DNA of 64,000 nucleotides from Pseudomonadota bacterium (GTDB lineage: Bacteria; Pseudomonadota; Gammaproteobacteria; Ga0077536), in assembly GCA_016719885.1 (NCBI GenBank), contig JADJYF010000008.1, positions 162,200 through 226,199 on the forward strand, read 5' to 3'. Both the position numbers and the translations under genes were made by a program. Each line of letters begins with the position of its first letter. The stretch's first letter is position 1. The notes beneath the pieces were generated by a model. That model saw only the letters and a program-made list of their open reading frames with translations, made no database searches and had not been told where the DNA came from. This document shows positions 7,020-10,556 of this stretch, piece after piece.

Positions 7020-10000
7020 TCAGGCCGAAATACGCGACTCGTCGCCGACCGCCACGCCGTAACCGGCCGCCGCCAGCGCCGCGCACACGGTCTCGAACTC
7101 GCTTTCGATCAAGGGCAGCCGCTCCAACGCGCGCTCGTAATCGCCCTGGCGCAACAAGGTGTCAGTGGCGGCGCACAGGTTGGCCAGGCGCAGTGCGCCG
7201 ATCTGGGCGGCGCTGGCCTTGAGCGCGTGGGTGGCGCGTTGGCGGTCGGTGAAGTCGGCGCTGCGCAGTACCGCCAGCAGGCGCGGCGCATCCTCGCAGA
7301 ACAGGCTCACCACGCGTTGCACGGCGGCGCCGTCGCCCTGCCCCTCCAGCACCTTGAGACTCTCCAACGCGTCGCGATCGAGCGCGGGCAATTCGCTGGG
7401 CGCAACGCTCACCACCGGCGGCGGCTCGGCGGGCACGGCGCGCGCCACGCCGGTGCCGCTCGCCACCAGCCAACGGCCGAGCACCACCTCGAGATCGGTA
7501 CGCGAGAACGGCTTGCGCACGTAGTCGTCCATGCCGGCCGCGATGCAGCGCTCGCGATCGCCGACCATGGCATTGGCGGTCAGAGCCACGATCGGCACAC
7601 GGCGCGCGCCGCCGCCGCCTTCCGGCGACGCTTCGAAGGCGCGGATGCGCGCGGTGGCCTCGAAGCCATCCATCTCCGGCATCTGGCAGTCCATCAGGAT
7701 CATCGCGTAGTGCTTGCGCCGCACCGCCGCCAACGCGGCGCGACCGTTGTCCACCGCCTCGGTCTCCACGCCAAGCGCACGCAGGTTGATCAGCGCCACT
7801 TCGCGATTGACCGCGTTGTCCTCGACCAGCAGCACGCTGCCTTTGGCGTCGGCCACCGCGGCGCGCGGTTCGCTGCGCGCGTCACCGCTGGGCGGCGCCG
7901 CGACGGCCAGCTTGACCGGCAGTTCGAACCAGAACATCGAACCGAGACGCGGCACGCTGTGCACGCCGATCTCGCCGTGCATGAGTTCCACCAGCTGGCG
8001 CGTGATGGCGAGACCGAGCCCGGTGCCGCCGAACGTGCGCGTGGTCGAACCGTCGGCCTGGGTGAAGGGCAGGAACAGGCGCTCGGCGGTCTCGGACTCG
8101 ATGCCGATGCCGCTGTCGGCAATCTCGAAGCGCACACGCAGCGGCTGCGCGGTGGCCACCCGCAGCGCCACCGAGACGTGACCGCGGTTGGTGAACTTGA
8201 TGGCATTGCTGACCAGGTTCAACAACACCTGGCGCAGGCGCAGCGGATCGAGCTCCACCCATTCCGGCACCGATTGTTCGACGCTGCACGACAGCTCGAG
8301 TCCCTTGGCGCGCGCGCGCGGGTCGAGCATGTCCACCACTTCGCGCACGATGTCCGCCGGCCGCGCGGCGATGGATTCGAGGTCGAGCTTGCCCGCTTCG
8401 ATCTTGGAGAAATCGAGAATGTCGTTGATGAGACCGAGCAGCACCTGGCCCGACTGGCGCACGGTCTCGGCATAGTGGCGCTGCGCGTCGTCGAGCTTGG
8501 AATCGAGCAACAGGTCGGTCATGCCCAGCACGCCGTTGATGGGAGTGCGGATCTCGTGGCTCATGTTGGCGAGGAATTGCGACTTCGACAGGTTGGCCTC
8601 CTCGGCGGCGAACTTGGCGGCGCGCAATTCGTCCTCGGTGTCGCGCTGCTTGGCGATGGCCTCGTCGAGTTCGCGCACCCGCTGTTCCAGCACCGCGTTG
8701 CTGGTGGTGAGATCGCGACGCGCGTCGCGCAGGCCTTCGCGCGCGCTGGCCAGCCCATGGGCCGCCTCGGTGATCTCGCGTTGCAGTGAATTGAAGTTGG
8801 CCGCCATCTCCGCCAGTTCGTCCTGGGAATGGACCTTGACCGGCACCACGTCGACACGCGCGTAGGCGGCGTCCAGGTCGCCGCGTCCCAGCGCCAGCAT
8901 GGCGCGCGTGAAGTCGGCGGCGGTACCCTGGCTGAGGTCCTTGGCAGCCTTCGATACCGCCACCGCCGAGTGCGCGATCATGCCCGGCAGCACCAGGCCG
9001 ACGGTGATGGTCAGCATCGCAACGGCGACGAAGATATCTTCGAGGATGGTGATCAACGCCGGGTTGACGTGCGACGGCAATTGCGACACCGCCAGCAGGT
9101 AACCGGCGCCGTCCAGCACCAGCACCGCCAGCATCGCGCCGGTCAGCTTGATGTGCAGCGAGCGCTTGATGCCGGGCAGGCCGCTGCGGCGACGGTCGGT
9201 GTACAGGCGCACTGCGTACAGCGCGGTGCCGGAGAACGCGAACACCAGGCCGAACAGCACCGTCGGCAAGCCGAACTGCTGAAAGCCCAGCAGCGCCGAC
9301 AAGGCCCAGATCACGGCGGCCACCAGCCCCAAACCGATGGTGCCGCGCGGCGCGCGATAAGGACGCGTCATTTCCGGCGCATCACGGCGCAGCAACCACA
9401 CCGCCACGCTCGGCAGGCAGATGCCGATCAGGTAGGTGAAGTTGGCGGCGGCGATGAGCCAGATCGGGTCGCCCAGCAGCAGGAAGAAGATGGCCATGCC
9501 GGCCGTGAACAGGGTCGCCACCCACGGCGCATCGGAGCGCGCGCGACGCGCGAAGATCAGCGGCAACAGACCGTCTTCCGCAAGTTGCGCCAGCGTGCGC
9601 GAGGCGCCCGCCAAGGGCTGCACCGTGCCATGGAACATGTTCAACATCATGAACCAGATGGCGGCGGCCTTGGCGCCCGCGCCGAACAGCGGCGCGAACG
9701 TCGGCCCCAGCACCAGCGCCAGGTCGTGCCCCAGCGGCTCGGCGCCGAGCGTGCCCAGCCACACCACCGGCAGCAATACGAAATACACCGCCGCCATGCC
9801 CGCCGAGGCCCACATCGCGCGCGGCACGTTGCGGTTGGGGTCGATGGTTTCACCGACGTGGCAGGCGAAGGCCTCGAAGGCCGGCGCCGCGAAGCCGATG
9901 AGATACAGGCCGGCCATACAGCTCGTGAGCGCGCCGAACATGCCGTCGAACGGCGTGGTGAGGTGGAAATCGAAGGCTTGCTGCCAGTTCATGGTGCCGG

Positions 10001-10556
10001 CATAGATCGGCAGCAGGCCCGACAGGAAGGCCAGCAGCGCCGAACAAAAGGCGATGGGCGTGATGAGCCGCGCCACCCACTTCACGCCGCAAATGTTGAT
10101 GCCGGCATAGAACAGCACCAGTCCGGCCGCCATGAGGTGGATGGGCACCTGCGGCAGATACCAGGCGTGGATGGCCGACGCCGACAGAATGGCGGTCAGG
10201 CCACAGGTCGGGATCCAGCCCCACCAGTAGCAGGTGCCGGCCAGGTTGCCGAGCACCGGCGCATAGGGTTGAAACGCTTCGCCGCAGGTCGCGGCGATGC
10301 CACCGACACGGTTCGGCCACATGAGCACCAGTTCGAGCCAGCCGGGCATGGCCATGTAGCCGAGCACCAAGCCCAGCACCAGCAAGGGCACGGCGGCGCT
10401 GCCTTGTCCGGCGATGGCGCCCTGACCGATGAACAGTGCCGTGATCAGGAACAGGCTTTGATTGCTGCCGCCCATGGCCAGCGCCGTGGTGCCGACCCAG
10501 CCCAGCGTGCGTGGATGCGCCAAGGCATCCGCGGACGCGGTGGAATCCTCTGTCAT
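7020..10556 (-). CDS. Hybrid sensor histidine kinase fused to an N-terminal APC-type amino-acid permease domain (permease-HAMP-HisKA-HATPase-REC-Hpt)
   Basis: ATG 10556 ([16 protein letters not shown]). About 470 aa of multi-TM permease-like sequence ([33 protein letters not shown]); H-box [14 protein letters not shown]; [10 protein letters not shown]; DSGIGI; GGTGLGLAI; receiver [15 protein letters not shown]; Hpt [12 protein letters not shown]. The 250 codons upstream in the track ORF are shadow sequence. Confidence 0.85.

Follow-up and report, generated by a model that had tools for sequence, protein, structure and literature searches.

How does a histidine kinase perceive its signal when its N-terminal half resembles an amino-acid permease? 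The question is raised by a gene at positions 7020 to 10556, minus strand, of a 64,000-nucleotide stretch of DNA (the window) from a gammaproteobacterium of the Ga0077536 lineage (GenBank assembly GCA_016719885.1, contig JADJYF010000008.1, positions 162,200 to 226,199). A first-pass annotation, made from the sequence alone, described the product as an APC-type amino-acid permease fused to a hybrid histidine kinase. The protein is probably a membrane receptor kinase that takes in its signal through a transporter-derived APC/LeuT fold and not through a periplasmic ligand-binding domain, and its N-terminal module quite likely functions as a sensor input. The gene and the segments of its product are arranged as follows.

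7020-10556, minus strand: sensor gene, 1178 codons and a TGA stop (7020-7022)
9186-10517, minus strand: APC/LeuT-fold core, residues 14-457, 12 transmembrane (TM) helices (Pfam, AlphaFold2 (AF2), Foldseek, hhalign)
8973-9185, minus strand: basic cytoplasmic linker and TM13-TM14 hairpin, residues 458-528 (hydropathy, alignment, AF2)
8730-8972, minus strand: HAMP domain, residues 529-609 (Pfam, AF2 secondary structure)
8589-8729, minus strand: coiled-coil signalling helix, residues 610-656, where family-wide conservation stops
8391-8588, minus strand: HisKA domain (dimerisation and histidine phosphotransfer, DHp), residues 657-722, phospho-acceptor H667 at 8556-8558 (Pfam, residue check)
7911-8249, minus strand: HATPase_c domain, residues 770-882, with N, G1, F and G2 boxes (Pfam, residue check)
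7488-7835, minus strand: receiver domain (REC), residues 908-1023, with D912, D956 (7689-7691), T993 and K1015 (Pfam, residue check)
7083-7313, minus strand: Hpt domain, residues 1082-1158, with H1110 (7227-7229) in the motif HALKAS (Pfam, residue check)

In the N-terminal half, Pfam AA_permease (PF00324) matches residues 39-428 with an E-value of 1.1e-15 and 57.8 bits, above the curated cut-off of 24.6. The modules that follow are matched by HAMP (residues 549-596, 24.7 bits, cut-off 25), HisKA (657-722, E 1.6e-22), HATPase_c (770-882, E 9e-28), Response_reg (908-1023, E 1.2e-22) and Hpt (1082-1158, E 7.8e-07). The catalytic boxes are located at 780-788 (N-box), 814-818 (G1), 828 (F) and 844-848 (G2), and all phosphorelay residues are present, as in a hybrid (unorthodox) histidine kinase. 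The Pfam and residue checks thus bear out the order proposed in the first-pass annotation: about 470 residues of permease-like sequence, a HAMP-like linker, a coiled coil, and HisKA, HATPase, receiver and Hpt domains. The two further hydrophobic segments it described correspond to helices 467-491 and 499-528 by hydropathy and AF2. PAS, GAF, periplasmic, SSF and STAC domains were not found in the protein by the Pfam scan.

The N-terminal core is predicted to adopt the APC/LeuT fold. The AF2 model of residues 1-610 (pLDDT 85.7, pTM 0.84) contains 14 TM helices, two of which show the discontinuities that mark the LeuT fold, TM1 at N32 and TM6 at 221-225. Foldseek alignment to the solved carriers BasC, LAT1, y+LAT1, AdiC, GkApcT and ApcT yields target-normalised TM-scores of 0.72-0.80; NKCC1 and KCC3, two cation-chloride cotransporters, reach 0.36-0.42. 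The N-in topology is consistent with the basic 450-470 linker and the cytoplasmic HAMP domain. In the model, TM14 runs unbroken into amphipathic sequence 1 (AS1) of HAMP as a single helix (499-557), followed by a connector (558-579) and AS2 (580-609). By sequence the distance to solved carriers is considerable, with a phmmer E-value of 2.5e-8 to xCT and an hhalign probability of 93% (E 3e-7) to Escherichia coli AdiC. Sequence searches of the PDB with a single sequence or a narrow profile aligned only TM4-TM12, and TM1-TM3 were placed by profile-profile comparison. Four short segments of the core are referred to below.

10455-10463, minus strand: unwound segment of TM1, N32-Q33-S34, invariant in the core family, aligned with AdiC G25-S26-G27
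10392-10427, minus strand: loop G-Q-G-x-I-x-G-Q-G-S-A-A, residues 44-55, between TM1b and TM2, near-invariant in the core family
10215-10229, minus strand: TM3 motif Y110-W-W-G-W114, Y110 at the position of AdiC Y93 (alignment)
9873-9896, minus strand: unwound segment of TM6, G221-F-A-A-P-A-F-E228, E228 at the position of AdiC E208 (alignment)

The TM6 segment leads into the ten-residue APC signature loop, and F227-E228 together with E236-T-I-D-P-N-R-N-V-P245 align with the corresponding motifs of xCT, AdiC and TmoP. The AdiC residues E208 and Y93, aligned with E228 and Y110, act in pH sensing and gating. The pocket positions are polar (N32, Q33, T311, Q313 and N372). In the TM13-TM14 hairpin, the intramembrane residues D482, Y486, D507 and F509 are conserved; the periplasmic loop between the two helices is short and variable, and would thus not itself be a sensor. 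On the same side of the membrane, the loop at residues 44-55 is predicted to form a small β-hairpin, which is deleted in most divergent subfamilies and could serve as a lid over the outer vestibule.

The window gene does not stand alone: its module recurs throughout a large family, joined in other members to GGDEF-EAL or to further outputs. When one genome per species was scanned, 183 stretches encoding the N-terminal module came up, and statements on 80 loci refer to the best 80 of these 183. The taxonomic survey proposed in the first-pass annotation finds the module (residues ~14-600) in no fewer than 80 independent genomes, which represent about seven phyla. Among the carriers in culture are Undibacterium arcticum KCTC 42986 (L020), Glaciimonas immobilis DSM 23240 (L035), Mesorhizobium sp. 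M2E.F.Ca.ET.219.01.1.1 (L028), Verrucomicrobia bacterium IMCC26134 (L012) and Paraburkholderia sp. PREW-6R (NZ_CP155075.1, 251362-252948). Over residues 1-545 the best 80 loci show 64-95% identity, and each of them reads on in frame from the module into a long C-terminal part, except where a contig end or a frameshift interrupts it. A cluster search with residues 1-545 returns 790 clusters at E < 1e-5; the best 120 are ~67-76% identical, one reaching 95%, and their outputs, from precomputed Pfam assignments, comprise HisKA with HATPase, HWE_HK/HisKA_2, GGDEF, GGDEF with EAL, PAS and SpoIIE, the last a PP2C phosphatase.

The frequency of each output was determined by a Pfam scan of the C-terminal parts from 78 species genomes. 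HAMP is found in 75 of these homologues. HisKA occurs in 39, accompanied by REC in 32 and by Hpt in 9 of them; GGDEF likewise occurs in 39, with EAL in 36 of these. PAS is present in about 21 genomes and HD-GYP in one. The predominant downstream currency of the family is cyclic di-GMP (c-di-GMP) or a phosphorelay. Column conservation stands at 0.81 for residues 21-470, 0.75 for TM13-14 and 0.69 for HAMP, then falls to 0.3-0.4; because of this drop past HAMP, the core, hairpin and HAMP are taken as the evolutionary unit. Across 81 sequences from Alpha-, Beta- and Gammaproteobacteria, Verrucomicrobiota, Acidobacteriota, Armatimonadota, Gemmatimonadota and one cyanobacterium of the Gloeobacterales, the median pairwise identity of the module is 70% (minimum 57%), against 46% for the attached kinase cores. 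The module tree follows taxonomy at class level with some transfers, and the output type has switched at least four times. In this tree, the window protein lies inside a gammaproteobacterial clade of kinases with REC and, in part, Hpt. The family features are present in it: the core motifs, AAANFTYL among them, the hairpin with D482 and D507, HAMP and an output.

As far as the sequences tell, the clade contains no ordinary 12-TM transporter. A HMMER search of 1.84 billion representatives gives 241 clusters at E <= 1e-30, and among those covering the whole module 45 of 46 are 785-1539 residues long. The exception, P0045, has 574 residues and no called gene downstream. Proteins of 574-617 residues that appear to consist of the module only were considered as independent transporters and rejected as frameshifted or truncated forms. 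In two loci (L044, 7962-11130; L071, 7962-11094) the GGDEF-EAL part continues in another frame, and these frameshifts are either long-read assembly errors or pseudogenes. In L040 homology runs on past the stop codon, L042 is cut by the end of the locus, and P0045 and L040 look truncated. The lengths of the full-coverage clusters and the nature of the short forms together support the absence of a plain transporter. Divergent sister subfamilies (30-47% identity) likewise occur as fusions, with other residues at the pocket positions. Public annotations of relatives read 'amino acid permease', 'APC family permease' or 'histidine kinase/amino acid transporter'. Across the 80 loci, no neighbour is conserved beyond 17 loci, and those neighbours are generic signalling proteins. 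The swapping of outputs, the fixed coupler, the lack of a free-standing transporter and the lack of catabolic linkage jointly argue for a sensory input domain.

This argument presupposes that the fusion is real. The first-pass annotation had raised the worry that errors of assembly or sequencing near 9100-9200 had fused two separate genes, a permease and a kinase; the chance of this is now vanishingly small. The continuous open reading frame (ORF) recurs in 80 independent assemblies, complete genomes of isolates included, and at the TM12/TM13 junction the residues R450, D454, G459, K470 and L471 are nearly invariant. No break in base composition is seen across the gene. Locus L001 from the metagenome-assembled genome 'Gammaproteobacteria bacterium SJ420', one of the closest relatives, is syntenic with the window over 8.6 kb at 83% DNA identity, with no indels that disrupt the frame, and its sensor protein is 90% identical in amino acids. 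The continuity and conservation of the module across the junction in so many assemblies establish the fusion as genuine. Every part of the gene is under purifying selection, the transporter-like part being the most constrained: relative to the L001 orthologue, the ratio of nonsynonymous to synonymous substitution rates (dN/dS) is 0.055 in the APC core, 0.093 in TM13-14, 0.092 in HAMP and the coiled coil, 0.151 in the kinase core, 0.185 in REC and 0.226 in Hpt.

The single uninterrupted frame of 1178 amino acids described in the first-pass annotation is likewise intact. In the ORF list the minus-strand frame is open over 7020-11306, and the ATG at 10556 is the supported start. Upstream of it the frame is a low-complexity read-through of Ala, Arg and Ser that overlaps the divergent gene, and the longer extension is on that account spurious. 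The ATG at 10556 is adopted because the closest relatives begin at the same position: L001 aligns over 1-545 from its residue 1, and P0121 over 1-545 to 1-545.

What the module binds is approached through its nearest sequence relatives. The best NCBIfam match is the TmoP model NF053774 with 110.9 bits, other APC families reaching at most 63 bits, and the same model is the best match for four divergent sister subfamilies. TmoP is a permease for trimethylamine N-oxide (TMAO) according to Zhu et al. (2014, Environ Microbiol 16:3318), as cited in PMC4543880. A genuine TmoP, taken for comparison from a plasmid of Paracoccus sp. MA (798.6 bits, cut-off 690), aligns with the window protein over TM1-TM12 in hhalign (probability 99.6%, E 7e-24, 31% identity). 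This 596-residue protein (NZ_CP087599.1, L082 6251-8041) is annotated only as 'APC family permease'. Its gene belongs to a methylotrophy island, in which it immediately follows the genes for dimethylamine monooxygenase (dmm), and the protein is probably an under-annotated permease for TMAO or a methylated amine.

Both proteins share motifs in TM3 (C.W..W.P), TM6 (GLY...AFE.A.C...E..DP.R) and TM8 (AG..RTL.Q...DGLLP). TmoP differs in lacking the TM13-14 hairpin, HAMP and an output, and in carrying an insertion of ~90 residues after TM3. In the pocket, the TM1 sequence is GGSNQS in the window protein and GVPPLV in TmoP, and that of TM8 NMFHGTVQP and ALFMAIMTA, respectively, so that these positions are polar in the former and hydrophobic in the latter. 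The window protein is not itself a TmoP, since it scores 111 bits against the 690-bit cut-off of NF053774, and this identity was rejected. The proposal that YWWGW forms an aromatic box for a quaternary amine was also dropped as specific evidence, because TM3 reads Y-W-x-x-x-W at the homologous place in AdiC and C-N-W-F-A-W in TmoP.

The amino-acid specificity implied by the first-pass annotation is not supported. The TM1 G-S/T-G motif, which binds the substrate α-carboxylate in amino-acid carriers, is absent from the window protein and likewise from TmoP. Since G-S-G is replaced by the invariant N-Q-S and the nearest transporter is TmoP, the term 'amino-acid permease' is best read as a fold label and not as a substrate assignment. 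The TmoP-like ancestry points weakly to a small nitrogenous solute as the ligand, which is offered as a tentative guess and, taken by itself, is rather unlikely to be right. The polar pocket argues that such a ligand would be neither TMAO itself nor a canonical α-amino acid.

A mechanism can be proposed on this basis. A small solute would bind in the central pocket formed by TM1, TM3, TM6 and TM8 of the 12-TM core, and its occupancy would bias the core between conformational states of the LeuT type. This shift may pass within the membrane to the conserved face of the TM13-TM14 hairpin (D482, Y486, D507 and F509), and the predicted continuous helix from TM14 into HAMP AS1 would carry the change onward. 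By analogy with established HAMP and kinase behaviour, HAMP and the coiled coil would then set the activity of the dimeric DHp/catalytic core. Given the residues present, phosphate would flow from H667 to D956 and H1110, and on to an orphan regulator encoded elsewhere in the genome. Net transport would not be required; like the sensor Amt proteins, the module may no longer carry it out. The chance that the module is non-transporting is put at about even.

Several points weigh against reading the module as a receptor. The case rests on sequence and predicted structure, and the contacts between TM13-14 and the core, as well as the pocket geometry, are derived from alignments. The HAMP domain falls just below its Pfam cut-off. 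Horizontal spread, and not constraint alone, could account for part of the high identity between phyla, as some transfers are clear. The retained Y110, E228 and NPxRNVP loop are equally compatible with a working transporter, and thereby with a true transceptor, in which the APC domain would be an active secondary nutrient transporter and the kinase would respond to its cycling or flux, a mode also proposed for CbrA. To that alternative, judged somewhat unlikely, belong also the retained APC signature and gating residues, the predicted breaks in TM1 and TM6 that functional LeuT-fold carriers usually show, the annotation of the closest relative, TmoP, as a real permease beside dmm genes, and the observation that the SLC5 domain of CbrA does transport histidine (PMC13022988). 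However, the clade holds no stand-alone 12-TM transporter, catabolic genes are not linked, and in half of the family the module drives c-di-GMP enzymes. Moreover, retained motifs do not decide the matter, because Ks-Amt5, with all Amt transporter motifs, does not translocate ammonium, as stated in PMC11152129 with reference to PMC5764959.

The polar pocket, the unusual invariance of the module across very different bacteria, which would fit a universal cue, the presence of NKCC1 and KCC3 among the fold matches and the alignment of E228 and Y110 with AdiC E208 and Y93 could instead suggest a physical or ionic sensor, responding to pH, K+ or another ion, membrane potential or lipid state without any organic solute. 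This is improbable, as the carriers of organic solutes are the better fold matches by TM-score and the nearest sequence relatives are organic-solute permeases. It is very improbable that the APC-like domain is merely a membrane anchor or dimerisation scaffold with the signal entering elsewhere: it is the most constrained segment of the protein, invariant polar residues are kept at its pocket positions, and the Pfam scan reveals no alternative input domain. The receptor kinase with a transporter-derived input remains the preferred reading, and the surroundings of its gene are as follows.

2632-3591, minus strand: GGDEF protein of 319 residues (Pfam, E 1.9e-37), the N-terminal 146 residues without assignment
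4534-6390, plus strand, and 4453-5880, minus strand: two long overlapping ORFs on opposite strands
6983-7008, minus strand: GC-rich hairpin of 9 pairs followed by a T-rich tail, terminator-like by consensus match only
10557-10728, no strand: divergent intergenic region of 172 bp between the sensor gene and the HisKA-only gene
10729-11568, plus strand: HisKA-only protein of ~279 residues (HisKA is the only Pfam match)
11595-13823, minus strand: ORF of 742 residues with an APH-type phosphotransferase at residues 431-651 (Pfam, E 1.7e-50)
14008-15213, plus strand: MlaE permease with an N-terminal STAS_2 domain
15215-15967: ABC ATPase, next after the MlaE permease

The terminator-like hairpin lies 12 nt past the stop codon of the sensor gene, ahead of the inorganic pyrophosphatase gene ppa (6403 to ~6930), and from its position the sensor gene is probably a monocistronic unit of its own, separate from ppa. 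No σ70 consensus promoter was found in the 172-bp divergent intergenic region. A search by tblastn and a purpose-built hidden Markov model (HMM) detects no second receiver domain in the 64-kb window, in agreement with the first-pass annotation, which saw no response-regulator gene there; the partner regulator is therefore encoded elsewhere in the genome. The same annotation named the HisKA-only gene as the sole signalling neighbour, which proves incorrect, since the GGDEF gene at 2632-3591 is a second. The latter lies 3.4 kb downstream of the sensor gene and contains no receiver domain.

The HisKA-only protein consists of N-terminal hydrophobic segments and a DHp domain, just past which it ends, with no ATPase domain. 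In L001 its gene has the same start (MTSP) and the same end; it is found also in L002 and L003, and outside the closest relatives it is not conserved as a neighbour. It evolves much faster than the sensor gene, with 61% amino-acid identity against 90%, and could be a DHp-only modulator, a phosphatase partner or a decaying kinase.

Regulators adjoin the module gene in only ~14 of the 80 loci. In kinase-type members these are CheY-like REC and REC-HD-GYP proteins (L065, 11025-12547; L022, 6869-7909; L072, 3343-4469), which link the kinase branch to c-di-GMP as well. The adjacent regulators point to control of c-di-GMP rather than induction of uptake or catabolic operons. The neighbourhood of the 80 loci was also considered as a route to the ligand or the cognate regulator and was abandoned, no catabolic neighbours being conserved. 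Farther out in the window, the N-terminal 430 residues of the ORF at 11595-13823 have no Pfam match at E <= 1e-3, and 14008-15967 forms a lipid-transport (Mla-like) operon beside the region. Of the two overlapping ORFs, only the plus-strand one has a Pfam match, a pyruvate kinase barrel at residues 366-584 of 618, and given that position its translation probably starts well downstream of 4534.

Membership in a widespread family makes the window gene of more interest than a one-off fusion would be. Hundreds of proteins in many phyla carry the module, and their outputs include kinases, cyclase/phosphodiesterases and phosphatases. The chances are slightly better than even that the APC/LeuT body with its coupler of two helices and HAMP constitutes an unrecognised major class of receptor, an interchangeable input for two-component, c-di-GMP and phosphatase signalling. 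If so, a core identity of ~70% from Acidobacteriota to Cyanobacteria would imply that one universal small molecule, ion or membrane state is sensed, and that freshwater and soil bacteria use this cue to decide on biofilm formation and motility; the divergent sister subfamilies would sense other ligands, and LeuT-fold receptors would be a prokaryotic counterpart of yeast Ssy1. The APC family proper would be the third transporter fold recruited as a sensor, with a conserved membrane-to-HAMP coupler of its own. With this family it can be tested how HAMP signalling arises from a conformational change of the LeuT fold, whether transport can be uncoupled from signalling, and which cue lies behind c-di-GMP control in abundant uncultured freshwater and soil lineages. 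Its natural portability also makes the module a candidate chassis for engineered biosensors.

The first-pass annotation had called an APC-domain fusion functionally uncharacterised. This stands as far as the literature goes: no description of an APC-kinase, an APC-GGDEF protein or an APC-based sensor was found in the full-text literature searched, whose coverage leaves out most subscription journals and TCDB, so that an earlier mention is possible. The window gene, for its part, is not an isolated case. The statement that known transporter-kinase fusions use SSS/SLC5 domains is correct for CbrA and CrbS but incomplete, as an Amt-histidine kinase, Ks-Amt5 (PMC5764959), and an Amt-HAMP-GGDEF protein, Sd-Amt1 (PMC11152129), have also been published.

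The closest known designs are these sensor Amt proteins, followed by the SLC5-STAC kinases CbrA and CrbS. Like the window family, the sensor Amt proteins employ a whole transporter fold as the ligand-binding input, fused C-terminally to a kinase or through HAMP to a cyclase; one input module serves more than one output type, and the transporter motifs are kept. The folds are unrelated, Amt being a trimer of 11 TM helices per subunit, compared with the 12 TM helices of the APC/LeuT core. The window protein does not belong to the Amt/Rh fold, and what is shared is the design principle of a transporter fold, HAMP and an interchangeable output. The window family has an additional two-helix hairpin between core and HAMP, and a dimer is plausible for it, whereas the sensor Amt proteins have to break symmetry between trimer and dimer.

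CbrA and CrbS/MxtR, with the order SLC5/SSS, STAC, PAS and histidine kinase (PMC13022988, PMC7918813, PMC5715377), also carry an N-terminal LeuT-fold transporter domain of the APC superfamily on a sensor kinase and are candidate transceptors; CrbS, like the window protein, is a hybrid kinase. They differ in transporter family (SLC5/SSS, as opposed to APC proper, SLC7-like and TmoP-like), in the coupler (a soluble STAC domain and PAS, as opposed to a TM hairpin and HAMP) and in range, CbrA being limited to Pseudomonadaceae (PMC8871633) and the window module extending over about seven phyla. Receptors derived from transporters are regarded as rare in bacteria: CbrA has been called 'a rare transceptor' (PMC13022988), and reported transceptors have been stated to be exclusively eukaryotic (PMC11109136). 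Among the latter, yeast Ssy1 (the SPS sensor) and Gap1 use an APC-family permease fold as receptor, and their signalling is thought to depend on a transporter-like conformational state (PMC12958826, PMC11109136). They are eukaryotic proteins that act through separate partners (Ptr3/Ssy5 or the protein kinase A pathway), with no fused kinase, and belong to a different APC subfamily (YAT).

The C-terminal half has its own parallels in TorS, ArcB and BarA, which share the order HAMP, HisKA, HATPase, REC and Hpt. TorS (TIGR02956) is the best NCBIfam match for this half, with 426.6 bits over residues 548-1140; identity with TorS was rejected, the score lying below the cut-off of 676.5 and concerning the C-terminal half only. 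The input halves are unrelated. TorS senses through a periplasmic domain together with TorT. TCDB also lists a family of sensor kinase-MFS fusions (PMC3924187). Receptors with a transporter fold are thus already known, and what is new here is the fold (APC proper, TmoP-like), the coupler (a two-TM hairpin with HAMP) and the breadth.

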